Assembly: GCA_041650935.1 (NCBI GenBank)
Contig: JBAZKH010000001.1
Location: 640,911 to 704,910 of the forward strand
Length of the DNA stretch: 64,000 bases
From: Candidatus Omnitrophota bacterium
GTDB lineage: Bacteria; Omnitrophota; Gorgyraeia; 2-01-FULL-45-10
Direction: 5' to 3'
The stretch's first letter is position 1, and each line of letters opens with the position of its first letter. This document shows positions 47,606 through 64,000 of this stretch, one piece after another. The position numbers were made by a program, and so were the translations under genes. The notes under the pieces were generated by a model. It was given only the letters and a program-made list of their open reading frames with translations, did not search any database and was not told the DNA's origin.

Positions 47606-49438
47606 TCAAAATTCCGCTTTTATTCCGCCCGACATGGAGAATAACGGCACCGGGTAGTCCCTGACAACCTGATACCGCGCATTGAACAGGTTTTCAAGCG
47701 TCACAAAATATGTAAAGCCTTCCTTGAACTTCTTAGACACGCTCAGCTTTGCATTAAAAAATTTCTTCACTTTTATATTATTCGCGGGGTCATGGAACCT
47801 ATGGTCGACAAATTGTCCGGTCAGGTCACAGATAAGCCCGTTCTTATCTTTATATTTTAACGCTATATCCACCTTACTCACCGGCTGGTAGATAAGATAT
47901 TTGTTCGTCTGGCCGTCTTTGGCCCGCAAATAAGTATACGCGGAATCCAGTTCCAGGTCGCCGGTGAGGACAACTTTACCCTGGACTTCTATGCCGTTTA
48001 TGACCGCCGAATTTATATTTGTCGGCTGCCACAGGACGGCCTGCTGGACCCAGTTGATCAGGTTTAGAAAACTCGACCTGTAATATGTTATGCCTGCCGA
48101 GAATATGTCGCTTATCCGCGTATCGTAGCCGGCCTCGACCGTCCATCCGCGTTCCGGCCGCAAGGCCGGATTGCCGCTGACCCACCCGTCGTTCGGCCAG
48201 TACAGGTCGTTAAAGGTCGGCGCCCTGAATGAGCGGCCCAGCGAAGCGCGGATCGAGTTTTCGTCATTTATCTTATAGAGCCCCGTAAAGCTGGGACTGA
48301 TCTCGGAGCCGAAGTTCGAATAGCGGTCAACCCTGGCGCCGGCGGTCAGTTTCAGGCGCTTGAAGAGCTCGATCTGATTATCCATATAAAACGCCCAGAC
48401 GTTATAGTTATGCTTCGCGCTCGTCGTGCTGTCGTTAAAATTATAAGCATAATCGATGCCCATCAGTAATTTATAGATACTATAGAATTCCTGGGCTATC
48501 TGAGCGTTTATGCCGCTGACTTTGGTCGTCTGGACATCGTTTACGAAAGGAGCCGTATTGTATATGAACTCCAGCCTGTCGTTGATCTGGTATGCTTTTA
48601 CGGAAATATCGGTAGTCGCGTCCGGGGCATAATTCCAGCCGAGGTCGTAGAAACTCCTGTATGTCTTCTGTTTCTGCACGCTCGACGGCATAGTAGTGGA
48701 ACCGGGCGCGCCTGCCCTCGATTGATAGACCCCGGAATTGAATGTCAGGGTATTGTCCGGCCTGATATCATATTCAAGCTTCGCGTTCAGGTCCTTGGAA
48801 TTAAATTCGGAATTTTCCCGGAAGCCATGGTCCTCCTGGTAGTTGCCGCTAACCATATAACCGAGCGCTTTAAACCGCCCGCCGTGCGAGAACGTCTCGC
48901 TAAATTCTTTATAGCTGCCGAAAACAGTGGTCGACTCCGTCTTCTGGCGTTCTTTCGGCGGCTCTTTTGTTATGATATTTATGGTGCCGCCCATCGCCTG
49001 AGAGCCGTAGAGGCTCGAGGACGGGCCGTATACGACCTCTATCCTGTCGATATTATCGAGCGGTATACTGCTGAGGTCTACCTGGCCGTCTCTAGGGCTG
49101 TTGAGAGGCCTGCTATCGATCATTATAAGGACCTGCGCCGGGTTCGCCCCGCGCATCCGGACGGACTTTTGCGCGCCGAGCCCGCCGTAATCGGTTATAT
49201 CCACCGAAGGCAAATTTGTCAGCACGTCGCTCAGGTCCTTGGCGCCCGACGCTTCTATGTCGGCGCGCGTTATCACCTCTATCCTCCTAGGCGAATCGCC
49301 CTGCCGCTCTTCCATCCTGGACGGAGTCACTACTATCTTTTCGAGCTTTATCTTCTCCGCAAAAGATGAAGTACCCGTGAAAAATACCACCGCAAGCCCT
49401 CCTGCCGCCATTATTACCGCTCTTCTTGACTTTAGCAT
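47606..49438 (-). CDS. TonB-dependent outer-membrane receptor (BtuB-like by context)
   Basis: 610 aa. Signal peptide, TonB box EKIVVTPSR, plug domain, and a C-terminal beta-barrel ending in an aromatic residue (...GGIKAEF). Confidence 0.85.
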   Translation of the reverse strand: MLKSRRAVIMAAGGLAVVFFTGTSSFAEKIKLEKIVVTPSRMEERQGDSPRRIEVITRADIEASGAKDLSDVLTNLPSVDITDYGGLGAQKSVRMRGANPAQVLIMIDSRPLNSPRDGQVDLSSIPLDNIDRIEVVYGPSSSLYGSQAMGGTINIITKEPPKERQKTESTTVFGSYKEFSETFSHGGRFKALGYMVSGNYQEDHGFRENSEFNSKDLNAKLEYDIRPDNTLTFNSGVYQSRAGAPGSTTMPSSVQKQKTYRSFYDLGWNYAPDATTDISVKAYQINDRLEFIYNTAPFVNDVQTTKVSGINAQIAQEFYSIYKLLMGIDYAYNFNDSTTSAKHNYNVWAFYMDNQIELFKRLKLTAGARVDRYSNFGSEISPSFTGLYKINDENSIRASLGRSFRAPTFNDLYWPNDGWVSGNPALRPERGWTVEAGYDTRISDIFSAGITYYRSSFLNLINWVQQAVLWQPTNINSAVINGIEVQGKVVLTGDLELDSAYTYLRAKDGQTNKYLIYQPVSKVDIALKYKDKNGLICDLTGQFVDHRFHDPANNIKVKKFFNAKLSVSKKFKEGFTYFVTLENLFNARYQVVRDYPVPLFSMSGGIKAEF

Positions 49439-49469
49439 CTTCTCTTTCCTCCTGTTTCGCGAGAGTACT

Positions 49470-49640
49470 CACCTTTTTAAGAGCGTGATCGACCGGGCTA
49501 TATAGTGAATAGTGTATAGTGGATAGCGAATAGTAAGTCTGGTTGACTTTTAGGCCTATGCACTCTCCGCTAGCCGCTATTCACTAAAATTACCGTTGCG
49601 CGACAGCGCCTGGGATCTCACCAGGACTTCCTTCACTTGC
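49470..49640 (-). promoter_or_regulatory. possible second (degenerate) cobalamin riboswitch aptamer preceding the receptor gene
   Basis: Minus strand: GAAGGAAGTCCTGGTGAGATCCCAGGCGCTGTCGCGCAACGGTAA resembles the Cbl core (AAGGGAAnCCGGTGAAAATCCGG...CCCGCCACTGTAA). Followed by a B12-box-like AGTCAACCAGACTTAC and alternative pairings around the AGGAGG SD. Confidence 0.4.
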
Positions 49641-49661
49641 TCCAGGTTTTTAACTTCGCTT

Positions 49662-50336
49662 TTATGCGTATTTTTTAATATCCAAAAACCAATGCTTCCA
49701 GTACCCTTCTTTTAAGACCGGTTCGGCATCCAATATCCTGACCGGCTCCTTAAATATCGGGCCGTCTACTACCAGAGTATGGAACTCCCCGTTCTCCCCG
49801 CAGGGGCAGACTCCTTTCGCTTTGAATTCAGCCGCCAGATCCATATCCAGGAACCTGCCGACATACTCCTTCCCGAGTTTATCGGCCTGACAGCTCACTA
49901 TTATGGTCTTAAAGCCAAGGGCGGTAAATTCACCGACCAGGCTCATCGGATCGCGCTGCCACAGAGGCTCGACAGGCGAGACCCCCATATCGCCGCAGAC
50001 CCTTTCGACCCAATTTACCATGTCGGCAAGATAGATGTCGCCAAAGACCACGGTTTTGAAACCTTTAGCCCTAAAACCGGATACAGCCTCCCGGAACTCT
50101 TCCTCGTATTTCTTCATATCGGCAGTCACTTCTTTCTGGACTAAAGGGATCCCGATCTTTTGAGCCTGCAGAGAAAGGAGTTCCGACTCGATGCCGTGAA
50201 AACATCCGCGCCGGGATTCCCGCGAAATAAAAGTCAGGAGATACTTAACGTCGTATCCGTCGTTCATCGCTTTGTAGCAGGCGAGACAGCTGTCCTTGCC
50301 GCCGCTCCAGGAAGATATAGCCGCTACCCTATCCAT
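49662..50336 (-). CDS. PP-loop ATP pyrophosphatase of the DUF71 / Dph6-MJ0570 family
   Basis: 224 aa. SGGKDS PP-loop at the N-terminus. Start overlaps the cobS stop by 13 nt. Confidence 0.75.
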   Translation of the reverse strand: MDRVAAISSWSGGKDSCLACYKAMNDGYDVKYLLTFISRESRRGCFHGIESELLSLQAQKIGIPLVQKEVTADMKKYEEEFREAVSGFRAKGFKTVVFGDIYLADMVNWVERVCGDMGVSPVEPLWQRDPMSLVGEFTALGFKTIIVSCQADKLGKEYVGRFLDMDLAAEFKAKGVCPCGENGEFHTLVVDGPIFKEPVRILDAEPVLKEGYWKHWFLDIKKYA

Positions 50337-51076
50337 AAAACCGTCCTTTCCAGGATCGCAATACCGAACAGGACGGCTACTTCGGTTATTTCGCTTACCG
50401 CACCGATCGTGTCTCCGGTAATGCCCCCTATTTTTCTTTTTATTAATGCTCCCGCCATGTATGCGAATAAAACCGTCATTCCTAAAAGAACCGTCCCCGC
50501 TGTCCCGGCTATCAAAAAGACCACCGCCAGCGCCGAGAGCATTGCCGCCGCCGCTATACTTTTCTTTTTTCCGTCGATAAAGGCCCTGGCCTTGCCCTCA
50601 ACCCTTGCGTATGGGAACGCATATAATGAAACAACCATCGACGACCTGCCCAGCACACACATAAGGACGAGCGCCGTCTCTTTGGCCGTGCCTATTGCCG
50701 AAATAAATGCCACTTTAAGCATCACGACTGAGATGAGCGCAAGTACGCCCATTACGCCCGCATGCGGATCGCGCATGATATTCAGCATACCTGCCCTCTC
50801 CTTTCCGCTGAAGAGCGCGTCGCAGGTATCCGATAACCCGTCGAGATGCATGCCTCCGGTCAATAGTACGAGCAGGACAACTATAATTACGCTAGATGTA
50901 AAAGTCCCGAATTGGACGGCGGTCAATAAAAGACTCGCCGCGGCCAGCACCATCCCCAGCAGCAGCCCTACGACAGGAAAAAAAGCCGCGGCGCCGGCAA
51001 GGTCCTTTCCCGTCATGCGCTTTATCCGGATGGGGATTACCGTAAGAAACTGCGCCGCCGCCAGGAGGCTCTTCAT
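50324..51076 (-). CDS. cobS: adenosylcobinamide-GDP ribazoletransferase (cobalamin synthase)
   Basis: 250-aa polytopic membrane protein; CobS family conservation at the N-terminus (AAQFLTVIP). Confidence 0.88.
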   Translation of the reverse strand: MKSLLAAAQFLTVIPIRIKRMTGKDLAGAAAFFPVVGLLLGMVLAAASLLLTAVQFGTFTSSVIIVVLLVLLTGGMHLDGLSDTCDALFSGKERAGMLNIMRDPHAGVMGVLALISVVMLKVAFISAIGTAKETALVLMCVLGRSSMVVSLYAFPYARVEGKARAFIDGKKKSIAAAAMLSALAVVFLIAGTAGTVLLGMTVLFAYMAGALIKRKIGGITGDTIGAVSEITEVAVLFGIAILERTVLWIG

Positions 51077-51080
51077 ATCG

Positions 51081-52139
51081 TCACGAAACCTTTTTAGAAA
51101 CGCTTGCGCTTTCGAATGTCGCCATCTCGGAGAGTATCTTTGCGGAGGCGTCTATAAGGCAAAGCGCGAGCGCCGAGCCCGTGCCCTCGCCCAGCCTAAG
51201 GTCGAGATCCAATACAGGTTTAAGGCCCAGCTCCGCCAGGATAAATTTATGCCCGCTCTCGACCGAACAATGGCTCGCTATCATGTAATCTTTTACCGTC
51301 GGATGCAGTTTGTACGCTACAAGCGCGGCCGCGCCCGAAATAAAACCGTCGATAACCACCGGCACCCTCCTGGCAGATGCCGCAAGTATTATGCCCGCCA
51401 GGCCGCCTATTTCAAACCCGCCAACCTTCATCAGGACATCGATAGCGTCTTCAGGGTCGGGGCGATTTACATCCAAAGCCTTCTCGACGATCCTTATCTT
51501 ACCGGCAAGCGCCTTATCATCGAGACCGGCGCCTCTGCCCGTAACTTCTTTGACGGGCCTGCCGGTAAAGAGAGCCGTTATCGCGCTTGCGGCGGTAGTG
51601 TTGCCTATCCCCATCTCGCCCGTGCAGACTATATCTATACCTTTTTTGAATTCCGACTCAAATATATCTATCCCCGACCCTATGGCCTTTAGCGCTTCCG
51701 CGCGCGTCATGGAAGGACCCTTGACCATATTCCGCGTCCCGTAATTTATCTTCCTTATAATAAGGCCCGCGCCGGCCTTGATATCCTCGGCAACCCCCAT
51801 ATCGACCACCACGACCCTGGCGCCCGCGTGCCTTGCCAGGACGTTGATAGCCGCCCCGCCCCGTAAAAAATTATAGACCATCTGGGCGGTCACCGCTTTT
51901 GGATACGGGCTCACCCCCTCGTCGGTAACGCCGTGATCGCCGGCCATCGTGAAGATGACCTTATTTGCCAGTGGAGGCGTTTCGCTCCCCGTCATCCCCG
52001 TAATGCTTTTGATCAATTCCTCCAGCCTCCCAAGACTCCCCAGCGGCTTTGTAAGATTATCGAGCCTGCTTTGCGTCTTTGCCATTACGGCGCGATCGAG
52101 CGCTCCGATCGATCTCCTGACGCGATCCAGCTTCTCCAT
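51081..52139 (-). CDS. cobT: nicotinate-nucleotide--dimethylbenzimidazole phosphoribosyltransferase
   Basis: GDHGV, the GEMGIGNTT motif, and overall CobT length. Confidence 0.9.
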   Translation of the reverse strand: MEKLDRVRRSIGALDRAVMAKTQSRLDNLTKPLGSLGRLEELIKSITGMTGSETPPLANKVIFTMAGDHGVTDEGVSPYPKAVTAQMVYNFLRGGAAINVLARHAGARVVVVDMGVAEDIKAGAGLIIRKINYGTRNMVKGPSMTRAEALKAIGSGIDIFESEFKKGIDIVCTGEMGIGNTTAASAITALFTGRPVKEVTGRGAGLDDKALAGKIRIVEKALDVNRPDPEDAIDVLMKVGGFEIGGLAGIILAASARRVPVVIDGFISGAAALVAYKLHPTVKDYMIASHCSVESGHKFILAELGLKPVLDLDLRLGEGTGSALALCLIDASAKILSEMATFESASVSKKVS

Positions 52140-52655
52140 CTACTTTATCCTCAACGGTATACCGGATATCATAAAAACCATCCGGTCCGATCTTTCCGCC
52201 GCGATCTTATTTATCCGGCCGGCGATATCCCGGAATTTCCGGCCCAATTTTGTATCCGGAACTATCCCGAGCCCAACCTCATTCGATACTATAGCGGAAC
52301 AGCCCTTTCGCTTTTTAAGGGCCGCGATCGCAGAGATCGTCTCTTTTTCAATGATCTCCGGAGACTCTTTTGCGTGCATCATATTCGATACAAAAAGAGT
52401 AAGACAGTCTATGATGATGAAGTCATGCCCGGCGGGAAGGGTCCCGGCCAGCCGCGCCAGACGCCGCGGCTCTTCGTAAGTTACCCAGTTCTTCGGCCTC
52501 TCGCTCCTGTGCCTCTTTATCCGCGCGGCCATTTCGTCATCGAGCGCTTCGCAGGTCGCGATGAAAGCCGGGTTCTTCGCTTTAGCGGCAAGCGTAAGGG
52601 CGTAGCTGCTCTTTCCGCTTCTTGCGCCGCCGACTATGAACGTTATCTTTCCCAT
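52140..52655 (-). CDS. cobU: adenosylcobinamide kinase / adenosylcobinamide-phosphate guanylyltransferase
   Basis: P-loop GGARSGKSS at the N-terminus of a 171-aa protein. Confidence 0.88.
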   Translation of the reverse strand: MGKITFIVGGARSGKSSYALTLAAKAKNPAFIATCEALDDEMAARIKRHRSERPKNWVTYEEPRRLARLAGTLPAGHDFIIIDCLTLFVSNMMHAKESPEIIEKETISAIAALKKRKGCSAIVSNEVGLGIVPDTKLGRKFRDIAGRINKIAAERSDRMVFMISGIPLRIK

Positions 52656-53250
52656 CGTTTAGATGAGCCGTATCATTTAACAATACGGCCTTAGCCTTTC
52701 CTCTTATGAATTCTATTACCGTAAGGCTCGTGTGCCCGGGAACGAAGTCCCGGCGCTTGAGCGCGCCCAGCATCTCGCCGGCAATGATATTTATCACGCC
52801 GCCATGGGTCACTATCGCGACCGCGTCATCCTCTTTGCGGCGGGTTATCTTTTTAAAGGCCTTAAGTACCCTTTTCTTGAATGCCGAAGGAGTTTCGCCG
52901 CCGGGTATCTTGACACCGAACGGGTCGGCCAGCCATTTAATATGGAGCCGCGGGTACCGGGCCATGATCTCGTCATACGTAAGCCCTTCGAAGATACCGA
53001 AGCATATCTCTTTTAAGCCGGGCTCGGACTTGAGGGGCCTGTCGCCGAATATTATCCGCGCAGAACCGATCGCCCGTTTCCTGTCGCTTGTGTAAACAGC
53101 GCCTATATCTACGTCCTTAAGGCGGCGGGCGAGTTTTTTCGCCTGCGCCCGGCCTTTCGCGTTAAGGTCCGTATCGCTATGCCCCTGGTACCTGCCGAGA
53201 CGGTTCCAGTCCGTCTCCCCGTGACGTATAAGTATTATTTTTTTAGCCAT
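52582..53250 (-). CDS. cobC: alpha-ribazole-5'-phosphate phosphatase (histidine phosphatase family)
   Basis: LIRHGETDWN catalytic RHG motif. Start set at MAKKIILIRHGE. 74-nt overlap with cobU. Confidence 0.75.
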   Translation of the reverse strand: MAKKIILIRHGETDWNRLGRYQGHSDTDLNAKGRAQAKKLARRLKDVDIGAVYTSDRKRAIGSARIIFGDRPLKSEPGLKEICFGIFEGLTYDEIMARYPRLHIKWLADPFGVKIPGGETPSAFKKRVLKAFKKITRRKEDDAVAIVTHGGVINIIAGEMLGALKRRDFVPGHTSLTVIEFIRGKAKAVLLNDTAHLNDGKDNVHSRRRKKRKEQLRPYACR

Positions 53251-53261
53251 AAATGACCCTA

Positions 53262-53580
53262 AGGATAAATAAAAATCCCCACACCTTCGCTTCACGAAAG
53301 TATGGGGCAAGTTCCCTGTTCTACTAAAACCCACACATGACGATGCTCGCACGGCATCGCACTGCTATCATATGGGCAGGTCTTCTGACTACCCCGGCCT
53401 TATCGGCTGCCTTCCCATTCCGAAAAATGCGGAAAAGTGGCATGATTCACCGACAGGCTCCTCTTAATAACGCAAGAGGCCGGGGCTACAGCGGCGGGAC
53501 CGTTTCCGTTTTGCGCAAACTTTGCCAAGCAGCGCTTGCTCGGAATTCCCTTTTAAGCCCTTTCGGGCGCCCATATAGCT
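53262..53580 (-). promoter_or_regulatory. cobalamin (AdoCbl) riboswitch with intrinsic terminator controlling cobC-cobU-cobT-cobS and downstream genes
   Basis: Minus strand contains AAAAGGGAA, CGGAAACGGTCCCGCCGCTGTAGCC (CCCGCCACTGT core), GGGAAGGC and the B12 box AGTCAGAAGACCTGCC (plus coords 53374-53390). Then a hairpin CCCCATAC...GTGTGGGG plus U-run ATTTTTATTT (plus coords 53266-53307) directly 5' of the cobC start. Confidence 0.8.
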
Positions 53581-53656: not shown

Positions 53657-55267
53657 TTACGACTTTTTGTACACCACGTTGTTTGAATAAGTAACGTTTC
53701 CTGCCGCATCCATCGCTGCTGCCCTAACCTTGTAAGATCCGGCAGATAATCCCGACACGTCCCACGTAGTAGAATAGCTGTTACCCGCGGTATTGTAGTC
53801 GCATCCGATCGCTCTCCATATCGCACCATCTTCATATTCGAAACCGACATTCTCCATCGTGGCATCCGAGATACGGGAAGAAGCCGTACACGCTACGGTC
53901 AGCTGATTACCGGATCCCGACACGGCTAGATTCCCGGGTTTTGCCGGAGCCGTTGTATCCGGGGCATAACCATCGGCCTCGAACTGCACTTCGTCTATAT
54001 AGAAATCGCCGGCAAATACCCCGTAGTCCCAATCACCCGGCCATCGGGACATCCAGCCATCCCTTGTGAATACGATCTCGCCGATCGAATTAGTCTTATT
54101 CACCGCGGTTATGGAAGTCCCCTGCCCCGCCCAGCCCTTCGTAGTGAACTCGGACAACGGCACCGTAACCTTTGTCCATGAAGTATTCGTGAAAGTATAC
54201 TTGAAAAAATGGAAATAATTATTAAGGTACGTCGGGCAGTGTAATTCCATTTTAAGACATCTCACGTTAGCCGAGCTCGACTTACACGAAAATGTTATGT
54301 TGCTGTACGCGCTGAAATTCCTGGGCTGCGGAGTCGACCCCGAATCACCGCCGCCAACAACGGAGGCGTACGCGTAATAGCGATGGTCGGCCGGAGTATC
54401 GGTATCCCAGCAATCCTGGAAATGGAAGTCTAATCCGTTTGCATAATCGACGTACTGGCTGTTTGTGTAGCTAAAACTACCGTGGACAGGACTGGTCTCG
54501 GAAGCGCCGCCGCAATTCCCCCCTAACGCGTTCTTGCTGACCTTGTCGCCAAAGTGATCGATCCTTACAAAACCCAGGAATTGTTTGCCGAAACATATAT
54601 TATCGATATAAACCGTGCTGTTTTTGGGACTACCGTTTAAAGCGGCTTGCGTATTCTCGAAAGTTATTGCGATCTCTTTGATCCGTGACCGGTCTGTAAT
54701 GTTGGCAAAAGCATCCAGCGGAATAACCACTTTCCGCCATGCCGTAGCAACTCCGCCGTCGAGATAATCCGTAACATAGACCGAGGCATTGTAATCGTTA
54801 TTATGGCCTACTGACTGTGTCGGATCGAAGTTTGTATGATGAAGCTCTATCTTAAAATATTCGCCGCCATTTAATCCCTTGACCCAGAAGGACAAATAAT
54901 TATAATCGCTTATGCTGTCGCCTCCAAGGGATGTGTAATATGTTGCCCAGCTATCCGTGTAATTAACATCATAGGTCAACTGCAGGGAGTGGCCCGCGTT
55001 GCCGTAAGCGGCGGTATCACCTACGTAACTTCCGACGATAGACGCGGTAGTGTCGCTTTTGGCAAGCGTACCGCTTATATTACCCCAGAGATTTACGCTG
55101 GAGCCGCTATTGAAATCATCGAGCATCGGCCCGGGAGTCGCAGAGACCGTCCCCTCGCTTTTAATCGCGACCGCGTCCGCCAGCGGCTGATATGCCGAGA
55201 TATGGCCATTATCCCGGATCATGATAACCGCGGCGATCGATATCAAAATAATAAGTTTTACCTTCAT
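53657..55267 (-). CDS. secreted protein with two beta-sandwich CBM-like modules and a C-terminal Fn3/Ig-like domain
   Basis: 536 aa with a signal peptide. The repeated LDDFNSG.../DHFGD... modules resemble carbohydrate-binding beta-sandwiches. 4-nt overlap with the upstream gene. Confidence 0.5.
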   Translation of the reverse strand: MKVKLIILISIAAVIMIRDNGHISAYQPLADAVAIKSEGTVSATPGPMLDDFNSGSSVNLWGNISGTLAKSDTTASIVGSYVGDTAAYGNAGHSLQLTYDVNYTDSWATYYTSLGGDSISDYNYLSFWVKGLNGGEYFKIELHHTNFDPTQSVGHNNDYNASVYVTDYLDGGVATAWRKVVIPLDAFANITDRSRIKEIAITFENTQAALNGSPKNSTVYIDNICFGKQFLGFVRIDHFGDKVSKNALGGNCGGASETSPVHGSFSYTNSQYVDYANGLDFHFQDCWDTDTPADHRYYAYASVVGGGDSGSTPQPRNFSAYSNITFSCKSSSANVRCLKMELHCPTYLNNYFHFFKYTFTNTSWTKVTVPLSEFTTKGWAGQGTSITAVNKTNSIGEIVFTRDGWMSRWPGDWDYGVFAGDFYIDEVQFEADGYAPDTTAPAKPGNLAVSGSGNQLTVACTASSRISDATMENVGFEYEDGAIWRAIGCDYNTAGNSYSTTWDVSGLSAGSYKVRAAAMDAAGNVTYSNNVVYKKS

Positions 55268-56085
55268 TTTGTAATCACTTCCCCCGAGTTATTTACTTCA
55301 AACCGTTTCCGCGATAGGGCAGTCTTTTCTTTTGTATACATTTTACCATATTTCATAATTATTTCCACCGTATACATACCCGCTTTAAGCTCAGGGACAT
55401 CCCAGGAGACCGAGTATGTATTGGTCTGGCACGGTAACATGCTTTTACCACAGGGCAGGTCCAGCTTCTTTATCTCTACTCCTTTTTCGTTCTTAATAAG
55501 CGCCTCCATAGACGCGGGTAATATGTGCACATTGCCGGAATTCGCGACCGATATCATTATATTCAAGGATTCTTTTCCGTCTTTAAGCAATTTCGAAACA
55601 GCAACATCTTTTATCTTTGCTTCCGGCGTTTCGGTTCCTTTTATAGCTACATACAGCACTGCCCCCAGCCTTGAGCGAATACCGGTTTCCGGGGTGGCGC
55701 CTGCCTCGACTACCACCGAAGAAAAATATACCTGGACAGCTACCTCACCCTTTACATTGGTCGGAGTCCTCACTTTAAGTTTGATTTTTTTTATTTCCCT
55801 GGGTTTTAGGTCAAATTCATAAGTATCCAGGGTTATCCAGGACTTTACGGGTAGATCCTTATAGCCATGCGCATACGCACCCCAATTTTCCGGCTCAACG
55901 ACTACATGCATAGTACCTTCTGTATCGTTCTGCGCATAGTAATCGATTACCGTTACTTCACCTGCAGGAAGACGCGTTTCAAGGCGCGCAGGTCCGATAA
56001 CCAGTGCGTAGGAATTGACACAGGTCAGAAAAAAACTCACTGCCAGGATACAAAAAGATATAGTATATTTACGCATCTTTACCAT
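55264..56085 (-). CDS. secreted Ig-like (PapD/MSP-fold-like?) protein, putative periplasmic partner/chaperone
   Basis: 273 aa with a signal peptide. All-beta composition. Start 7 nt after the giant gene stop. Confidence 0.4.
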   Translation of the reverse strand: MVKMRKYTISFCILAVSFFLTCVNSYALVIGPARLETRLPAGEVTVIDYYAQNDTEGTMHVVVEPENWGAYAHGYKDLPVKSWITLDTYEFDLKPREIKKIKLKVRTPTNVKGEVAVQVYFSSVVVEAGATPETGIRSRLGAVLYVAIKGTETPEAKIKDVAVSKLLKDGKESLNIMISVANSGNVHILPASMEALIKNEKGVEIKKLDLPCGKSMLPCQTNTYSVSWDVPELKAGMYTVEIIMKYGKMYTKEKTALSRKRFEVNNSGEVITK

Positions 56086-56092
56086 CCCGCCT

Positions 56093-59000
56093 TTATGTGT
56101 GATAAATATCTACCGTCAACCTGCTCGTACGGTACTCCTGGGCAGGCGCGCCGCTAAAATCTGCCGCCAAATAGACATAAATAGCATTACCTACCGCGGT
56201 CGTCCTGGGCCAATAACCCGGAGGCGGATATGCCAGTGGAACCGGCGCGCCAAGCTCGCCGTTACTATTGATCAAAGTCCGGTAATTACGCACATACTGG
56301 TCCTTCGACCAATCAGGGTCGCTCTTATCCATCACAAAGGCAAATTCCGCCCTGTCTCCGTCATTGACCGTAGTATCGAATTCCGGGGTTTCGGCCCCAT
56401 TATAATAACCCTTCCGGGCATCCCAGACTTGCCATATCATCGGAACTCTATAGCCCGAATTCGACACTCCTATTAATCCGTTTGCCTGGGCGCCTGTTCC
56501 GGAATATTTTGGATATGCATTATCCGCCTTATTGTCGGTATATATTTGTATACCCCATGTCCCGGAACTCTTATAATCTATCTGCAGATACTGGTTTGCA
56601 AGAACTTTTGGCTGGGAGGCTGTGGCCTGCCCGAAATCTACTCCTGTGGCCTGGATACCGGACGCGCCGTCCAGTATCGCGATATCCAATTTGTCACCGG
56701 TGAGATCGACGGGGTCAAATTCCGCTTCGTCAAAATAGAGAGTGATCGGCTGTAGCGTATCCGCGGAAACAATATCGACTGCCGCTATGCTCGAAAGATT
56801 CACCGCGGCGGGAAAATCACTCAATAAGACGTGCATCTCCTGCCATACTCCGCCGGTTGCGACCGTAAACGTCATTTGCGCTTCCGTATTGCCGGAATCC
56901 CGCAGGCGAAGCGTAAATTTTTCTCCGCCATTCTCTCCCATAACCCTGAAAGATATCATGGTCGCGTCTGATATATTTGAGTTATTAAGAGCTATCGTAT
57001 TCTTCTGGCCCGGCTGTAAGATTGCTTTGCGCACTTTTCCGGCCGTGCCGTCGTATCTCAACGCGTCGACAAAGACCGTATCTCCTATGGTCAAACCGCC
57101 GTTATCAAGAGTAAGACCTCCGAATACGTTCGGCTCATGTCCGTCGCCGTAATCCAACCGGTATGTGCCCGTAATTATTTTGATCTCGGCGGAATTCGCA
57201 GATTCGGTATTATCGCTCTTTACGGACCTGACCACATAATAATACGGCGTACCATTACTAAGACCGCTGTCTGAATAGGTTACCGCGGGACCATCTACAG
57301 AGCCCGCCATTATATAAGGCCCTCCCTGCGCGCCTGAGCGATATATGTTATATTTTGCCGCGCCGTAAACGGTATTCCACCTCAGATGCGTTTTGTCTTT
57401 ACCAAAGGATGCTCCGATAACTTCGGCCGGCGGTTTAAGGACCGGCGGTATGGCCTGCGTAAGACCAAAACTATCCCACCGTATCCACCCGCTTGGGGCA
57501 GTTGTGGTAATGCCGGGATGATAGAGCGTTATTACATTCCATCCTTCATTGACATAGAATCCTTGCGTGACTACCTGGTCGCCTTCCGAAACCTGACCGT
57601 TGAAGATTAATTCGGAATTATTGACGAATATAACCAGGTTGTTCGACAATTGGTTCTGGGTATCCAAGACCTTAAAAGTGATCGTAGCGTAATCCGTAGT
57701 TTCGTTATAGAAGATTATATTACTAAAATTTTCGGTATCCTTGTCCAGCTCTTGAGAAAACGTATTTATATCGGCCCCTACATAATATGTAGAATCGAGA
57801 CGGTATTTGTTGCCAAAGAACGACTTTGGAGTAGAAGATTCATTACGCGCCATAACCCATGTATCATGAACGGATGGACTCGTTATTTCTATGTTCTGCC
57901 ATGCGAACCATTTGGCGCCGGCGGTACCGCTCTGCCACTGGAAGGCAAGCGTGTTAACCCCGGTCTTTAAGGCCGCGTTGTCTATAGCTATATATTGTAT
58001 AAGCTGCGGGTCGATACTGGAGCTATCATAAGTGAATGTTATCGACCCACCGTCGATATCGTTCAACTTTATACCGAGCGTAACCGTATGACTCCCGAGC
58101 GCTTTATTCACAAATTGGTGTATTGTAAGTAGATACGCCTTGTTTTCTACGGAATCCAGGTTAAACTGTACGGTCTGCGAAGGATTTTCCGCGCTCACCT
58201 GCCCCATATGAAAATTCGAATTACTATCCGGGTCATCAACCGTAATAGCACATACATTGTCGGCAGCGAATCCTAATTTCTGTATTATGGTATCCTTCAA
58301 GGTCTTGCCCGGCTCAAGCTCGAAACCTCCGAAATTATTCCATATAAGACCGGAATCGCGGTTCTCCGCCATAATAAGCGATATGCCCATATCGATAGCG
58401 CAATAGAACGACGCTATCGGGAACGGCTCCTCATTCAGGCTACTGCCCATCCTGAACGAATTTACAAAACCGTAATCTCCCCATATCTGATAACCATAAA
58501 CGTCATACAGCTCCTTCATCTTCTTAAGGGCGCGCTGGCACTCATCCGGCAGCATGGCTATCGATCCTCCGGCCGCCGAAGGATGGACCGTACCATCGGC
58601 TCCACGCACGTCTCCCGACGGAATCGCAACGCCTGCCGGCGGGGCACCGTAAACATTGTAACTGAATCCACTGCTGTACCCGCTTGTCAATCCCCAGAGA
58701 TCTTCCTCACCCGCATAATTCGCAATATTATCGTTGCAGAACTGCTTATTTGCCTTTGTCGCCTCAACAGAGTTCTGCCACCAGTCAATACCTTCCTTAT
58801 CATATAGCGGGAGACCTGAGGCATCTTTAAAATTAAAGAAGGCCTGCGCATACTGATAAACGAAGAGCGGGCCGAACCACGACTTTACCATAGGGTTACT
58901 GTCCGCATTGTAAGTGCCAAGCTCGCGCCTGAATGCGTAGAATGTTTCGGCGGGTATCGCGTGATCGGAATCCGGAGCCGCCGCCGCAAGGATGTAGATC

Positions 59001-62000
59001 AGCATACATTCGCTTGTGTAATCCCAATGGTCGAAGAATTGATTCGCGCCGGTCCGGTCGGGGTCCCATGCGTGATACAGCTGGTTATAATACGGATTTG
59101 CCACTTCGTGGCCGTCCTGGACGGTTTTGTTTTGATCCAGGAAAGCTTTCCAGTTGATATTTTTGTATATCAGCAGGGCCTTGTCTTTCAAATCTCCGCC
59201 GAAATATTCACCGGCAGTCAGGACGCCGGCAACGAGTATTGCGGTATCGACCGTCGAAACTTCCGAGCCGGCCCATCTTTCGCCGGTTTCGATATTGACG
59301 TAATGATAGAATAAACCGTCCCTTCCCCATGTTGAAAATGTAGACGGATCAGCCGAGTTCTGATTACCCTGTATCTCGAGCAGTTTATCGAATATCAGCG
59401 TAACCCTTGCTTTCAGTTTGTCCGGGTCCGCCTCCTGCCAATCCGGATTTGTCCCGTCGCCGTAATGTTCGGCCGCAACGCACATTGCCGCAAGACCGAA
59501 TCCGGTAGCCGCCATGCTCGCCATATTGTAATGCGTGTCCCATGTCGCGTTACGGTTGGCAGGATCGACCGGCAATCTGTCACGCACAAATCCCGTGGCC
59601 GGATTATCGGTCTCATGCCAGAAATATTTGAATGAGGTTATGAGTATCTGCTCCTCGATAGTCAGACTCGCTGTAAAGAGAGCCGTTACCGACTTATTAG
59701 CGTTCATTGTTATGGTAGCGGGGTTTGTAGAGCCGGTTAGGTCGCCTGACCAATTGGAGAACGAGTATCCGCCAGCCGGCGCAGCTGTCAGGGTAACTAC
59801 TTCACCAGCAGTATAAGTGGTCTTATCTGGTGACTTCGCTATGGAACCGTTAGAGGCCGTAAGAGTGAGAGTGTACGCAGGTACTTCAGTGAAGCTCGCG
59901 GCTATCGTGTGGTTTGTAGTTACATTAGTGAATGTGTAAGTGCCGCCCGAGAGCGTAACAGGCGCGCCGTCCACTAATACCTGGTCGATATTGTAACCTG
60001 TGTCGGCAGTAACCGTGAATGTCTGGCTTGCGCCATTGGCTACGCTTACAGCGCCTGAAGGCGATATGTCACCGCCGGTACCCGCTGTAGCGTTGATCGT
60101 AAGAGCCGGCAGTACTGTAAACAGAGCCGTTACCGACTTATTAGCGTTCATTGTTATGGTAGCGGGGTTTGTAGAGCCGGTTAGGTCGCCTGACCAATTG
60201 GAGAACGAGTATCCGCCAGCCGGCGCAGCTGTCAGGGTAACTACTTCACCAGCAGTATAAGTGGTCTTATCTGGTGACTTCGCTATGGAACCGTTAGAGG
60301 CCGTAAGAGTGAGAGTGTACGCAGGCGTCGAACTCTCCGTAACCGTCACATGCCATTCGAACGGTGTGGAGACTGCCGGGGTGCCGTTATCGGTCAGTAC
60401 TACCTTTATATAGTACTCGCCCTCCGGTAGAGCCAATGCGCCGCTCTGCGCGTTCTGTAGTTCCGCAAGCTCTGTATACGAACCTCCTGCCGGCTTCTTG
60501 TACCACTTGAAACTTACCGATTGCCCGCTGTCGGGATCATGATACTGTTTTACTTTAAACTCACAACTTTTAACCTCGCCCGGATGGATAGTTATGTTAA
60601 CATCCGCCGCGGCAGGGGTGATCTCGTCGATAACCGGAGCGTTATTACCGGTAACCGTCACATGCCACTCGAACTGCGTAGACATCGCCGGAGTGCCGTT
60701 ATCGGTCAGGACTACCTTTATATAGTGTTCACCCTCCGCGAGAGCCAATAGACCGCTCTGCGCGTTCTGTAGTTCCGTAAGCTCTGTATACAACCCGCCT
60801 GCCGGCTTCTTATACCACTTGAAACTTACCGATTGCCCGCTGTCGGGATCATGATACTGCGTTACTTGGAACGACTGCTGTTTAGTCTCGCCGGCCTTAA
60901 CGTTAATATTGACTTCGGCCGCGGCGGGGGTAAGCGCATCTATGACCGGCGCGTGATTCGCGGCATCGCTGACGACTTCGACCGCCCAGGTAAACGAGGA
61001 AGAATTACCATTACAATCCGTAGCGGTTACGACGATCGTATAGTCGCCCGTGCCGAATATAAGCGAGAGTATGGAAAATTCACTCGGCGTACCGTTTATC
61101 ACTTCCCCGTTCACCGTCCACGTAATCGTTACCGGCGTATCGGGATCTGAAGCCGATGCCATAAATACCGTAGATTCGTTCTTGTGCAATGTTACGGAAG
61201 ATTCGCTGGGAGTTACCGTCAATACGGGAGGCGTACCGCTGACTGTAATCGTTATATCTTCGCTATCCTGCAATGCGCTGGAATTATCCTCCCGCGCGAT
61301 GAAACGGAGATTCTTAACCGTGTCCTCATCGCTTTCGGCAGGAGTCCAGCTGAATACTTTATTATCGAACGCCGCGCCGACGGGTAGGCCTTCGGCTAGA
61401 TAGAGAAGCGGGTCGCCATTAGGATCGGCGGCATTGATATTGAATATAAGTTCTTTCCCCACGCCGATCGTCTTATTTCCTATAGGATCCAGCACGGGCG
61501 GCTTATTTACCGCACTGCTCACCAATATGCGCAGAGCGCTTCCGCCCACTATGATATCCAGCGCGCCGTCGCCGTTAATATCCGCCAGTTGGACATTTTG
61601 GCCTCCGATAAGCGCCGGGGTGCTCCGGTAATCCGGCAGTTTTATAGACGCGTCGATATTTTTGAATGAGCCTGCCTTATCATTCATATAAAGCGATATG
61701 CTGTCCTCTCCAAGCACTACCGCGTCCAGCCGGCCGTCGCCGTTCAGGTCTCCCAGCTTAATGTCTCTGGAATTAAAATCGTTCGCAGGCATCAGGTCGG
61801 CCGTCTTATCCGCGAATGAGCCGTCGCCATTATTCATAAGAAGCAGGTTTTGTGTAAAACATGCCACGACAAGATCTATCTTTCCGTCGCTATTTACATC
61901 GCCCGTATCCAGGACTTCGCTATATTCGCTATCGTCGGGAAGAAGCGCATTCGTAGCATCGGTAAACCCGCCTGAGCCGTTATTTATATAGACACGATTC

Positions 62001-63352
62001 CGTAAATCGCTGGAACCGACGATCTCGTTATTGGTCGTAAGGATATCGAGCCGGCCGTCGCCGTCGACGTCGCAGAATCGTATATCGGAACTGCCGTCGA
62101 TAACAGCGGGCAGGTTAAATTGCGTATCTTGTGAGAATTTGCCGGCACAATCGTTGACGAGGAGGAGGTCCTGCGAGCCATGGACCGCTACCACAATGTC
62201 GAGATAACCGTCGCCGTTTACATCGCCCAGATCGAGAGCGGCCGCGTCCTGTGCCAGAGCCGGAGTGCCGTCGGAGACGTAGGTAAACACGCCTGCGCCG
62301 TTATTCGAAAATAACTTTATAGCCTGGCCCTCGGAGTACGTAAGGAAGAGTTCCGGGAAACCGTCACCGTTAATATCGCCAAGGGCCGCATCGGTAATAA
62401 TAGAAGCGCTATTCTTAATCTCATCCGGCAGTGCCCCGTTGGTAAATCTACCGCTTCCATCGTTAACAAGCAGGTATACCTTCTTCAAAACCGTATCGAC
62501 TACCAGAAGATCCAGGTCCTTGTCGCCGTCTACATCGCCGGTCCTGATTATAGATGAATCGCTTAAACTGATCGCGGAGTCAAGGAGCGCTGTTGTCTGA
62601 TCTACAAAGACCGACCCGGCCGTATCGCCGAGTATATCGAACATCCCCATCTTGCCGCTTACCGTATCCACGCTCACCGTAATATCGGTAAACCCTTCGG
62701 GAAGCCCTTGCGGAACGGCGGCGCAAATCTGGTTAGCCGATACCACCGTTACCGTATCGGACTCGGTATCGCCGAATTTAACCGTATCTTTGGCTGTAGC
62801 GCTGAAACCTGCGCCCTGTATAGTAACGGCAACACCCGGGATAGCGCTATTTGGAGTTACGCCGGTCACGTATACCGGCGCCGGGCTGGACGAACTGCCT
62901 TCAGAACCGGTCCCGCTATCACCATCACCCGGATCATCAGTTGTGGTGGTATCTAACACGCTGCTCAGACCATAGACCACACTATCATCGTCCGAAGAAT
63001 TGGACTTTGAAGGCGCTTCAGGAGTATCGCTGGAGTTTGCTTGCAAAGAAGGGCTGGTAGATACAGTTTTTTCCTGGGGAGTATCCGGGCTATCATAATC
63101 CGATGTGTTGTTATTAGCGGTAGAATTATTCAATGGCGTAAAGTTCTGTAAGGCTGTGCCATTCCTGGATGAAGCAAGGGGAACCGAAATATTTGTCTGC
63201 GAAGATTCTTTGTCCGGCGATTGATACGCTTCCGCTACTAAAGGCGCGGCGGTAGGGGCATGGAGGATTATCTCTTTATCCCGTATCGAGACAAGAGTAA
63301 GGATCGAGATCGCCGCCAATATCCAAAACTTGATCCTTCGCATCGTCCTCAT
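56093..63352 (-). CDS. giant (2419 aa) secreted multidomain surface protein
   Basis: Domains seen: signal peptide; S/T/N-rich linker; IPT/TIG; at least 7 FG-GAP/VCBS repeats (D.DGDG..D); tandem PKD-like domains; 3 InlB-B-repeat-like domains; a six-hairpin glycosidase-like domain; Fn3. Conserved C-terminal tail AIYVYLAADFSGAPAQEYRTSRLTVDIYHT. The likely start is the ATG at 63343 (MRRIKFW), which has a better SD. Confidence 0.8.
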   Translation of the reverse strand: MRTMRRIKFWILAAISILTLVSIRDKEIILHAPTAAPLVAEAYQSPDKESSQTNISVPLASSRNGTALQNFTPLNNSTANNNTSDYDSPDTPQEKTVSTSPSLQANSSDTPEAPSKSNSSDDDSVVYGLSSVLDTTTTDDPGDGDSGTGSEGSSSSPAPVYVTGVTPNSAIPGVAVTIQGAGFSATAKDTVKFGDTESDTVTVVSANQICAAVPQGLPEGFTDITVSVDTVSGKMGMFDILGDTAGSVFVDQTTALLDSAISLSDSSIIRTGDVDGDKDLDLLVVDTVLKKVYLLVNDGSGRFTNGALPDEIKNSASIITDAALGDINGDGFPELFLTYSEGQAIKLFSNNGAGVFTYVSDGTPALAQDAAALDLGDVNGDGYLDIVVAVHGSQDLLLVNDCAGKFSQDTQFNLPAVIDGSSDIRFCDVDGDGRLDILTTNNEIVGSSDLRNRVYINNGSGGFTDATNALLPDDSEYSEVLDTGDVNSDGKIDLVVACFTQNLLLMNNGDGSFADKTADLMPANDFNSRDIKLGDLNGDGRLDAVVLGEDSISLYMNDKAGSFKNIDASIKLPDYRSTPALIGGQNVQLADINGDGALDIIVGGSALRILVSSAVNKPPVLDPIGNKTIGVGKELIFNINAADPNGDPLLYLAEGLPVGAAFDNKVFSWTPAESDEDTVKNLRFIAREDNSSALQDSEDITITVSGTPPVLTVTPSESSVTLHKNESTVFMASASDPDTPVTITWTVNGEVINGTPSEFSILSLIFGTGDYTIVVTATDCNGNSSSFTWAVEVVSDAANHAPVIDALTPAAAEVNINVKAGETKQQSFQVTQYHDPDSGQSVSFKWYKKPAGGLYTELTELQNAQSGLLALAEGEHYIKVVLTDNGTPAMSTQFEWHVTVTGNNAPVIDEITPAAADVNITIHPGEVKSCEFKVKQYHDPDSGQSVSFKWYKKPAGGSYTELAELQNAQSGALALPEGEYYIKVVLTDNGTPAVSTPFEWHVTVTESSTPAYTLTLTASNGSIAKSPDKTTYTAGEVVTLTAAPAGGYSFSNWSGDLTGSTNPATITMNANKSVTALFTVLPALTINATAGTGGDISPSGAVSVANGASQTFTVTADTGYNIDQVLVDGAPVTLSGGTYTFTNVTTNHTIAASFTEVPAYTLTLTASNGSIAKSPDKTTYTAGEVVTLTAAPAGGYSFSNWSGDLTGSTNPATITMNANKSVTALFTASLTIEEQILITSFKYFWHETDNPATGFVRDRLPVDPANRNATWDTHYNMASMAATGFGLAAMCVAAEHYGDGTNPDWQEADPDKLKARVTLIFDKLLEIQGNQNSADPSTFSTWGRDGLFYHYVNIETGERWAGSEVSTVDTAILVAGVLTAGEYFGGDLKDKALLIYKNINWKAFLDQNKTVQDGHEVANPYYNQLYHAWDPDRTGANQFFDHWDYTSECMLIYILAAAAPDSDHAIPAETFYAFRRELGTYNADSNPMVKSWFGPLFVYQYAQAFFNFKDASGLPLYDKEGIDWWQNSVEATKANKQFCNDNIANYAGEEDLWGLTSGYSSGFSYNVYGAPPAGVAIPSGDVRGADGTVHPSAAGGSIAMLPDECQRALKKMKELYDVYGYQIWGDYGFVNSFRMGSSLNEEPFPIASFYCAIDMGISLIMAENRDSGLIWNNFGGFELEPGKTLKDTIIQKLGFAADNVCAITVDDPDSNSNFHMGQVSAENPSQTVQFNLDSVENKAYLLTIHQFVNKALGSHTVTLGIKLNDIDGGSITFTYDSSSIDPQLIQYIAIDNAALKTGVNTLAFQWQSGTAGAKWFAWQNIEITSPSVHDTWVMARNESSTPKSFFGNKYRLDSTYYVGADINTFSQELDKDTENFSNIIFYNETTDYATITFKVLDTQNQLSNNLVIFVNNSELIFNGQVSEGDQVVTQGFYVNEGWNVITLYHPGITTTAPSGWIRWDSFGLTQAIPPVLKPPAEVIGASFGKDKTHLRWNTVYGAAKYNIYRSGAQGGPYIMAGSVDGPAVTYSDSGLSNGTPYYYVVRSVKSDNTESANSAEIKIITGTYRLDYGDGHEPNVFGGLTLDNGGLTIGDTVFVDALRYDGTAGKVRKAILQPGQKNTIALNNSNISDATMISFRVMGENGGEKFTLRLRDSGNTEAQMTFTVATGGVWQEMHVLLSDFPAAVNLSSIAAVDIVSADTLQPITLYFDEAEFDPVDLTGDKLDIAILDGASGIQATGVDFGQATASQPKVLANQYLQIDYKSSGTWGIQIYTDNKADNAYPKYSGTGAQANGLIGVSNSGYRVPMIWQVWDARKGYYNGAETPEFDTTVNDGDRAEFAFVMDKSDPDWSKDQYVRNYRTLINSNGELGAPVPLAYPPPGYWPRTTAVGNAIYVYLAADFSGAPAQEYRTSRLTVDIYHT
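59679..60325. repeat. intragenic tandem duplications in the giant gene
   Basis: 59679-59881 and 60123-60325 are identical over 203 bp (period 444 bp = 148 aa). 60339-60547 and 60651-60859 are about 90% identical (period 312 bp = 104 aa). Confidence 0.8.
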
Positions 63353-63370
63353 CCCCCTTTAGCGTGCCTA

Positions 63371-63441
63371 TAAAAAACCGGACTACCAATCCTGATCGAT
63401 TTGGTAATCCGGCTGCCCAGTACCAATATACCGGTACTGGG
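63371..63441 (-). terminator. tandem stem-loops with a U-tract in the leader of the giant gene (terminator/attenuator-like)
   Basis: Minus strand: GCCCAGUACC-loop-GGUACUGGGC, then CCGGAUUACCAA-AUCGAUCAGGA-UUGGUAGUCCGG followed by UUUUUUAU about 20 nt before the SD/ATG. Confidence 0.4.
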
Positions 63442-63523
63442 CCCGTGATTTTGCGCCCCCGCATTACTGCAGGTTTGCCTTTTTCAGTCAATCATTTCAA
63501 AACTATCTGCCAAGCTCTAGAAC

Positions 63524-63562
63524 TTAGCTAAACCTTCCTTAAGATAAAGAAGGTTTAGCTAA
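63524..63562. terminator. perfect 14-bp inverted repeat TTAGCTAAACCTTC/GAAGGTTTAGCTAA, 6 nt downstream of the upstream gene's stop
   Basis: Read directly. No U-tract follows on the minus strand. Either a Rho-dependent/weak terminator or a protein-binding palindrome. Confidence 0.3.
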
Positions 63563-63567
63563 TTCTA

Positions 63568-64000
63568 TTAGTCCTGCACCTCTTCGATATAAAGCTTCGA
63601 CGTCGTATAGTTCTGCGCGGGCTTATTCCTGAAATCGGCGCCAATGTAGATGTATATACCGCTGGTGAGGTTTCCCGGCACGTTCTTTGTAAAATCGCCG
63701 GCGCACGCCGCAGTAAGGTCGGGCACGACACAGTTATAGTTTGTACCGTCATAGCCCAGGCTGAAAGCAGTGGTTGCGATACTCTTATAGAGCGCCATAC
63801 CTGCAAGCGTGTTGTCGGAACCATTACTAATTATGTGAACAGTTGCCGATGTCCAGTAATCTTCCGTCCAGCTCTGGGGCATCAACCCATCACCATCCTT
63901 GTTTTCCACTGCCACGCTGCTGGTTGTAGTGCCTTTATACAACGTAGCGTTGTCAAGGGTACTGTTGATTGTCACGTATTTGTACGAATTACCCTTGTCG
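63568..64000 (-). CDS. secreted/surface protein, C-terminal part (frame open to window end); shares C-terminal domain with the giant protein
   Basis: Frame open from 64000 to the stop at 63568. Ends ...GIYIYIGADFRNKPAQNYTTSKLYIEEVQD, matching the giant protein's C-terminus. Confidence 0.5.
   Translation of the reverse strand, partial: DKGNSYKYVTINSTLDNATLYKGTTTSSVAVENKDGDGLMPQSWTEDYWTSATVHIISNGSDNTLAGMALYKSIATTAFSLGYDGTNYNCVVPDLTAACAGDFTKNVPGNLTSGIYIYIGADFRNKPAQNYTTSKLYIEEVQD

Follow-up and report, generated by a model that had tools for sequence, protein, structure and literature searches.

WxL/WxLIP systems are understood as a peptidoglycan-based form of surface display and are reported to be overwhelmingly Firmicute, more than 91% of the 938 known WxL sequences being found in Firmicutes (PMC9772566). 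Their clusters always encode three proteins, namely a small WxL protein made of the domain only, a large WxL protein in which the domain is always C-terminal behind host- or substrate-binding domains, and a WxLIP of the DUF916-DUF3324 type (PMC9772566, PMC10599100). A cluster is defined by at least one WxLIP and at least two WxL genes within a few genes (PMC10599100); the commonest has one WxLIP and two WxL, and AlphaFold2 (AF2) predicts that a WxLIP β-hairpin inserts beside the N-terminal strand of WxL (PMC9772566, PMC10599100). For Lactobacillus csc/WxL clusters, a role in carbohydrate utilization has been proposed (PMC1534035). TLP-1a/b are 8 nm pond-water fibrils of unidentified origin, whose protomers of ~237 amino acids (aa) carry an N-terminal donor strand and belong to an unannotated family (PMC11494351). 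Here we describe a three-gene module reminiscent of WxL clusters in a 64,000-nucleotide (nt) stretch of a Candidatus Omnitrophota metagenome-assembled genome (MAG), the window; its large member is a secreted protein of 2419 residues, the giant, which ends in a domain of a real and previously undescribed family.

In the first-pass annotation of the window, two peptides, 56093-56185 (AIYVYLAADFSGAPAQEYRTSRLTVDIYHT, followed by the stop codon) and 63568-63660 (GIYIYIGADFRNKPAQNYTTSKLYIEEVQD, followed by the stop codon), were taken for a C-terminal motif of ~30 residues common to two adjacent large secreted proteins. Both peptides are indeed encoded there, on the minus strand. The first ends the giant, the open reading frame (ORF) 56093-63352 (minus strand), and the second ends an ORF that runs on the same strand from 63568 to 64000 and leaves the window edge with 143 residues visible; the motif was found in no further ORF of the window. 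The similarity of the two C-termini is not due to chance, because BLASTP pairs them with 13 identities over 25 residues (pairwise E 4e-7) and the partial ORF scores 37 bits with a family hidden Markov model (HMM) made without the giant or its close relatives. Instead of being confined to ~30 residues, as had been assumed, the likeness extends further: by the full HMMER scan, the local HMM, the alignment and AF2, the motif is the C-terminal β-hairpin of a β-sandwich domain of ~200 residues. A second supposedly common motif, I(S/N)SNG(S/E), is not homologous in the two proteins. In the family-HMM alignment the INSNGE of the giant, which sits 29 and not 60 residues upstream, pairs with VPDLTA of the partial ORF, the ISNGS of which falls inside a lineage-specific insertion; on this alignment, we take the resemblance to be fortuitous.

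AF2 supplied with the family alignment returns a confident all-β model (predicted local distance difference test, pLDDT, 83; predicted template modeling score, pTM, 0.82). Its last two strands, IYVYLAAD and RLTVDIY (model residues 177-184 and 198-204), are formed by the motif at 56093-56185, and the last 30 residues have a pLDDT of 89-96. Single-sequence AF2 of the last 446 residues of the giant was unusable (pLDDT 41). The family alignment has two invariant positions, N60 (in WGIQIYTDN) and D128 (in KD), and the near-invariant positions T58, G71, G78, L79, W93, G151, F185, Y193 and T195, while W52 and Y57 are invariant among closer members; just three of these conserved columns lie within the 30 residues of the motif. 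The fold is an immunoglobulin (Ig)-like β-sandwich, and its nearest solved neighbors are donor-strand-exchange pilins and fibers, namely the PapG pilin domain, Caf1, CfaB, CS17, EcpD, FimA, CooA, CsuA/B, SafD and CupE, with the archaeal bundling pilin, 0406 thread, CanX and TasA as further structural matches. In the AF2 model, the domain of the giant has its own first strand in cis. In line with the proposal of an undescribed C-terminal domain, it has no sequence match in Pfam-A, NCBIfam or the PDB, and in the giant the Pfam and NCBIfam annotation stops at a carbohydrate-binding module (CBM) of the CBM30-like type, ahead of the unannotated last ~200 residues.

The domain is not confined to the two paralogs of the window. 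HMMER comparison of the last 205 residues of the giant with 1.84 billion cluster representatives yielded 219 proteins at E<=1e-3, each representing a cluster of 50% identity, from Omnitrophota, Elusimicrobiota and other candidate phyla. The domain matches no known C-terminal domain family. A word-indexed homolog search with the last 200 residues returned nothing, and the family emerged from the full HMMER scan alone. With the local HMM, matches span ~170-205 residues in every case. As the annotation had supposed, many secreted proteins carry the domain at their extreme C-terminus: ~130 of 149 representatives end 0-4 residues after it, and in the remaining ones it stands directly after the signal peptide and is followed by other domains. 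In none of the 149 is it internal.

Sorting of ~235 family sequences by architecture gives three forms, i.e., stand-alone small secreted proteins, the extreme C-terminus of large carbohydrate-active proteins, and a position right behind the signal peptide. About half of the family is the domain alone, and many of these members have 215-260 aa, signal peptide and domain together. A segment of ~22 residues behind the signal peptide, A|AFTS..(S/K)ST.TA(S/T)(A/V).(L/F)...G, is conserved in ~100 small members. Its second half is retained in the 25 large members with an N-terminal domain (~10% of the family, with the cargo C-terminal to the domain), and the segment is absent from the 110 large members with a C-terminal domain, including the giant, where the domain follows ~8 residues after the last strand of the CBM-like module. 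The cargo of large members comprises CBM30, Ig, GH72-like, GH2-like and PF10091 domains and thus echoes the carbohydrate-utilization role proposed for csc/WxL clusters. The closest homolog of the C-terminus of the giant, P0002 (456 aa, on a 1.5-kb ENA contig), carries an N-terminal aminotransferase class-III fragment (HemL-like, PF00202), a fusion that probably reflects a chimera of assembly or gene calling and not a real architecture.

A scan of GTDB species genomes with a 10-sequence family alignment gave 46 loci, which lie in Omnitrophota (closest match 62% identity), Elusimicrobiota/Endomicrobia, Goldiibacteriota, Firestonebacteria, Caldiserica and Spirochaetes, with further loci in MAGs labeled Planctomycetia or Clostridia. 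The giant is identical to NCBI MFA5143181.1 of a Candidatus Omnitrophota MAG, named 'FG-GAP-like repeat-containing protein'; the remaining family members are annotated as 'hypothetical' throughout.

These architectures bear on the first-pass reading of the motif as a C-terminal sorting signal, possibly cleaved and read by a dedicated secretion, sortase or exosortase-like machinery encoded elsewhere, as are the C-terminal domain (CTD) of the type IX secretion system (T9SS), PEP-CTERM and LPXTG. Such a signal would account for the extreme C-terminal position in ~85% of members with 0-4 trailing residues, T9SS CTDs are β-sandwiches as well, and GspC-like or secretin genes lie near 9 loci. Yet a signal of this kind would hardly precede its cargo, as the domain does in 25 members, or stand without a passenger, as it does in about half of the family; hence a free or cleavable C-terminus is not needed. 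Furthermore, some proteins combine the domain with a genuine T9SS-type CHU_C tail, as does P0069, which has the domain at its N-terminus and CHU_C at its C-terminus. Instead of a short tag, the motif represents two core strands of a domain that, with ~200 aa, is twice the size of a T9SS CTD, has no transmembrane helix, basic tail, LPXTG or PEP motif, and matches neither Por_Secre_tail nor CHU_C. In place of a distant sortase or exosortase, the linked partner is a WxLIP-like protein with two Ig domains encoded directly downstream. We thus regard a sorting signal as very improbable. Two specific forms of it found no support. PEP-CTERM and LPXTG do not fit the ends of the giant (…RLTVDIYHT) and the partial ORF (…KLYIEEVQD), which are polar β-strands and contain no transmembrane segment, and no window protein has an NCBIfam PEP-CTERM or LPXTG match; the T9SS CTDs (Por_Secre_tail PF18962, CHU_C PF13585) match neither the giant nor the small members and are smaller (~80-100 aa) and obligately C-terminal, in contrast to a domain with N-terminal copies. 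Of the original idea of sorting or anchoring, the sorting signal falls, while anchoring or docking stays plausible; the domain is best read as a docking or assembly module.

The genes concerned are arranged in the window as follows.

63568-64000, minus strand, leaving the window end: 3' part of the small-member gene (143 codons plus stop), assigned by the family HMM and its ortholog in a related locus (L005).
63353-63567 (215 nt), minus strand: spacer between the small-member gene and the gene of the giant, evaluated by folding against shuffles.
56711-63352, minus strand: cargo part of the giant, from Pfam/NCBIfam annotation.
56093-56710, minus strand: C-terminal domain of the giant, ~205 aa plus stop codon, new family.
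55264-56085, minus strand: WxLIP-like partner, secreted, with two Ig domains; 273 aa, or 270 aa from the second ATG.
53657-55267, minus strand: secreted protein of 536 aa composed of a pair of CBM11/CBM30-like modules plus an Ig-like tail, overlapped at its start by the end of the WxLIP-like gene.

The first of these genes had been taken to encode a second large protein. The giant is large, with 2419 aa, but the upstream protein is probably a small paralog, judged from its relatives: the partial ORF is 40% identical to the small member of L005, its closest relative, which has ~310-340 aa comprising signal peptide, N-terminal strand and domain. Its visible part comprises the invariant DK motif, the lineage-specific insertion and, at the end, the hairpin GIYIYIGADF...YTTSKLYIEEVQD.

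In 44 of 47 non-redundant loci a gene for a secreted WxLIP-like protein of ~260 aa with two Ig domains adjoins a family member on the same strand, often overlapping it, and 3 of the 4 loci without such a gene are short contigs of 2.5-4 kb. This synteny spans Omnitrophota, Elusimicrobiota, Goldiibacteriota, Firestonebacteria and others. The usual operon consists of a small member, a large member and the WxLIP-like gene; small members often occur as 2-4 tandem copies, and the majority of loci contain a single small and a single large member. Within the window, 8-17 nt separate the stop codon of the giant from the start of the WxLIP-like gene. A partner profile of 33 sequences finds, among PDB sequences, a full-length match to Enterococcus faecium WxLIP1 (EfmWxLIP1; E 4e-4), Pfam WxLIP_PGBD (PF06030) matches 6 of the 33 partners (best 1.4e-7), and Pfam WxLIP_HBD matches the partner in the window (E 6.6e-4). 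Moreover, comparison by hhalign with four genuine DUF916+DUF3324 proteins from Firmicute plasmids gives Prob 98%, E 1.4e-13 and 227 aligned columns across both Ig domains. By these profile comparisons, the partner is a homolog of the Gram-positive WxLIP (DUF916+DUF3324).

With ~85% of members ending in the domain and a small plus a large member in most loci, the family follows the placement known from WxL proteins except for the 25 N-terminal cases, and the adjacent WxLIP gene of WxL clusters has its counterpart in the WxLIP-like gene of the 44 loci just described. The domain itself is another matter. WxL (PF13731) finds no match in 43 sequences, the giant, the partial ORF and 42 family members all being negative at E<=1, the solved WxL chain 9i25_A is absent from the top structural matches, and of the two Trp-x-Leu motifs on adjacent strands the second is absent. 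W-x-[IVL] is present in WGIQIYTDN and again in P(M/L)xWx(V/I), while the C-terminal strand, L-T-(L/V)-(E/D)-x-(Y/F), has no Trp. What echoes WxL does so at pattern level alone, i.e., a strand-turn-W-x-I-x-I element and a C-terminal L-T-hydrophobic-x-hydrophobic strand 3-4 residues before the end. Assignment of the domain to WxL was rejected at the sequence level after hhalign comparison with 6 and then 39 PF13731-positive proteins (Prob 2.3%, and at most 0.3% without signal peptides); a 39.7% hhalign match to WxL proved to be an artefact of aligned signal peptides. As such, WxL membership is not supported, although the two may be very remotely homologous.

Altogether, we favor, with moderate confidence, a WxL-cluster-like docking or assembly complex based on strand complementation that would display the giant carbohydrate-active protein. 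Its parts would be a small secreted protein with signal peptide, N-terminal strand of ~22 aa and domain (in the window, the partial ORF), a large secreted protein with enzymatic or adhesive cargo fused to the domain (the FG-GAP/glycoside-hydrolase/CBM protein of 2419 aa), and a soluble WxLIP homolog with two Ig domains (55264-56085). By analogy with WxL clusters, these three may assemble through β-strand complementation, in that a strand of the N-terminal extension of the small member, a hairpin of the WxLIP-like protein, or both would pair with the domain along the edge that its first and last strands form; as a complex, they would keep the giant attached to the cell surface or to a fiber. 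Pairing at this edge would explain the strong conservation of the terminal hairpin, and the occurrence of the N-terminal strand in small members alone fits a small member that donates a strand and a large member that only accepts one.

Several points weigh against this proposal. Homology between the domain and WxL is not detectable at sequence level. The partner lacks a C-terminal transmembrane helix, the protein in the window ending with ...FEVNNSGEVITK, and the 33 aligned partners end shortly past the second Ig domain with no hydrophobic tail. Furthermore, the hosts appear to be diderm, as judged from a TonB-dependent receptor in the window and an OmpA-domain protein in a related locus (L002), so that peptidoglycan-based surface display of the Firmicutes type is not simply transferable. 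Finally, the physical interaction, the insertion of strands, the location at the surface and the route of export are inferred. For the latter, only GspC-like or secretin genes near 9 loci suggest type II secretion.

The spacer bears on the main alternative, a donor-strand-exchange fiber, which is a more specific and partly overlapping version of the favored complex. The spacer at 63353-63567 has a minimum free energy of -90.8 kcal/mol (z -7.6), and none of 200 shuffles is equally stable. It forms three strong long hairpins, one directly past the stop of the small-member gene and the last followed by UUUUUU just before the ribosome-binding site of the giant; as a candidate attenuator or terminator, the region might control how much small protein is made relative to large. 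In the alternative, small members would polymerize by inserting their N-terminal strand into the next subunit, large C-terminal-type members, having no such strand, would cap the tip in the manner of FimH/PapG, and the WxLIP-like protein would act as periplasmic chaperone. In favor of this, the freshwater fibril TLP-1, ~8 nm wide, consists of protomers of ~237 aa whose donor strand is N-terminal (PMC11494351); in addition, the N-terminal extension is confined to small members, these often come in 2-4 tandem copies, the terminator-like spacer might set the expression ratio, and a SipW/TasA-type signal model matches 1 of 42 members (E 0.007). In sequence, the family nevertheless matches neither TLP-1 nor TasA nor chaperone-usher pilins, there is no usher-like gene among the recurrent neighbors scanned, and the partner matches WxLIP and not PapD. 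Likewise, one small and one large member in most loci fits a stoichiometric complex, and the domain of the giant already has a first strand in cis. Hence we consider such an enzyme-tipped pilus possible, if rather unlikely. Among related candidates, membership in the TasA/camelysin superfamily (Peptidase_M73; SipW-cognate signal TIGR04088) found no sequence match and no support, nor did an identity of the partner as PapD-type chaperone.

A bolder form of this alternative holds that the modules of Omnitrophota, Elusimicrobiota and related candidate phyla build donor-strand-exchange fibers with a shaft of small members, a giant glycoside hydrolase or adhesin mounted by its C-terminal pilin-like domain, and the WxLIP-like protein as strand-donating chaperone. 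We deem it unlikely. If true, pilus-type chaperones would include WxLIP as a second, widespread class, the Gram-positive WxL clusters would be tied mechanistically to donor-strand-exchange pili, and candidate producers of orphan environmental fibrils of the TLP-1 kind would be at hand.

The cargo part of the giant contains a signal peptide, IPT/TIG, 6 FG-GAP, Ig/PKD-like repeats and 3 divergent InlB B-repeats, as well as a PF10091 'putative glucoamylase' catalytic domain, an FN3-like segment and the CBM30-like module (residues ~2130-2207). Genes for a GH94 phosphorylase, a GspC-like protein and an unknown protein of ~976 aa recur in 8-9 related loci, and a sugar-binding protein gene in 4. The GH94 enzyme (cellobiose/β-1,2-oligoglucan phosphorylase family) is encoded at 5510-7960 of L038 and in 7 other loci; together with the PF10091 domain of the giant, its proximity hints at β-glucan as the target of the system. 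The GspC-like gene (with type II secretion system C and PDZ domains) lies 3-4 kb downstream of the WxLIP-like gene in 8 loci (L014, L018, L019, L026, L027, L030, L038 and L050), all of which have N-terminal-type large members, and L005 opens with the 3' end of a secretin gene (1-459; PF00263, E 1.7e-12) ~1.3 kb upstream of its small member. In sum, these neighbors hint at glycan utilization and possibly at type II secretion, and they are not universal.

It may be asked whether the domain is simply a stand-alone glycan-binding (lectin- or CBM-like) module for cell-envelope or substrate polysaccharides, with no obligatory protein partner and a terminal position that reflects the modular architecture of carbohydrate-active enzymes. 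Its conserved positions are rich in aromatic residues and Asp/Asn (N60, D128, W93, F185 and Y193, and W52/Y57 among closer members), the cargo is carbohydrate-active, and the GH94 phosphorylase and sugar-binding protein genes recur nearby. However, this explanation leaves open why a small domain-only paralog is near-obligately paired with a WxLIP homolog (44 of 47 loci), why the placement is strictly terminal, and why small members conserve an N-terminal strand; moreover, the domain matches no Pfam CBM family. Such a module is therefore improbable in our view.

The gene of the giant contains long internal repeats at 59400-60900 (minus strand, residues ~820-1300), namely two units of ~105 aa with most positions in common (NHAPVIDALTPAAAEV.../NNAPVIDEITPAAADV...) and two identical 70-aa units of the InlB B-repeat type (PAYTLTLTASNGSIAKSPDK...). 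These repeats are exactly where a public ENA contig from this genome breaks off: L001 ends at window position 59819 and has a 149-nt repeat match (99.3%) at 60115-60263; the repeats of the giant probably fragment assemblies.

Downstream of the partner, the CBM11/CBM30 protein of 536 aa does not belong to the new domain family; it is probably part of the same operon because of its overlap with the WxLIP-like gene. Related loci (L003, L009 and a 248-kb Elusimicrobia contig) again encode proteins of the CBM11/CBM30 type, so that the protein could be a fourth part of the module. The stretch that adjoins the module downstream, 47606-53352 (minus strand), holds a cobalamin lower-ligand/nucleotide-loop cluster (CobC-like phosphatase, CobU, CobT and CobS) and the TonB-dependent receptor, which supports a diderm envelope of the host; the rest of the window is housekeeping. 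In Elusimicrobia, putative outer-membrane proteins are encoded beside the module, one of 310 aa with no Pfam match and an N-terminus reading GMGGAFTAVANDANGPLFNPAG (L003, 8721-9653) and one of 702 aa with a C-terminal OmpA domain (L002, 12657-14765), and an 807-aa neighbor of an Elusimicrobia module ends in a CHU_C/T9SS-like tail.

A WxLIP-centered module with a different, or unrecognizably diverged, docking domain in several uncultured and apparently diderm phyla widens the range of the system and raises the question of how a WxLIP module works with an outer membrane. It offers a testable role for hundreds of 'hypothetical' proteins, suggests a way in which Omnitrophota may display giant carbohydrate-active proteins, and defines a three-protein set for structural study of strand complementation. 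It is also a weak lead towards the producers of environmental fibrils such as TLP-1.

Compared with known systems, the domain shares with T9SS CTDs that it is a C-terminal β-sandwich on large secreted, often carbohydrate-active proteins; it differs from them in that it also occurs N-terminally and stand-alone, may coexist with CHU_C in the same polypeptide, and has a WxLIP-like partner and not a Por component. TLP-1a/b (CryoSeek, Tsinghua Lotus Pond; PDB 9IKJ/9IKK) resemble the small members in size and layout (signal peptide, N-terminal strand and bulky β head) as well as in their freshwater or environmental source and unannotated family, whereas the likeness is at fold level only, with 8% identity and no HMM match. 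Chaperone-usher and other donor-strand fibers (Fim/Pap/Caf1/CFA-I/Csu, TasA, archaeal bundling pili) have the same Ig-like β-sandwich fold; as with FimH/PapG, subunit-only proteins carry an N-terminal extension that proteins combining cargo and a pilin-like domain lack, and as in chaperone-usher systems an adjacent gene encodes a chaperone-like protein with two Ig domains and the C-terminal strand is strongly conserved. In contrast to these systems, neither usher nor PapD-family chaperone was found in the modules, and the domain has ~200 instead of ~140 aa. From WxL clusters (csc of Lactiplantibacillus; Swp/Lwp/Duf loci of Enterococcus faecium), the module differs in several respects: the partner has no transmembrane helix, whereas WxLIP has a DUF916-DUF3324-TMH architecture anchored by its C-terminal helix; the module includes no LPXTG protein; ~10% of members carry an N-terminal domain, which is not reported for WxL; and it is found in Omnitrophota, Elusimicrobiota and further candidate phyla that appear diderm, as opposed to Bacilli. 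Still, it is with WxL clusters that the module shares its three-gene logic of small member, large member and two-Ig-domain partner, the extra N-terminal strand material that the small version has and the large version lacks, and a cargo active on carbohydrates or the cell surface.
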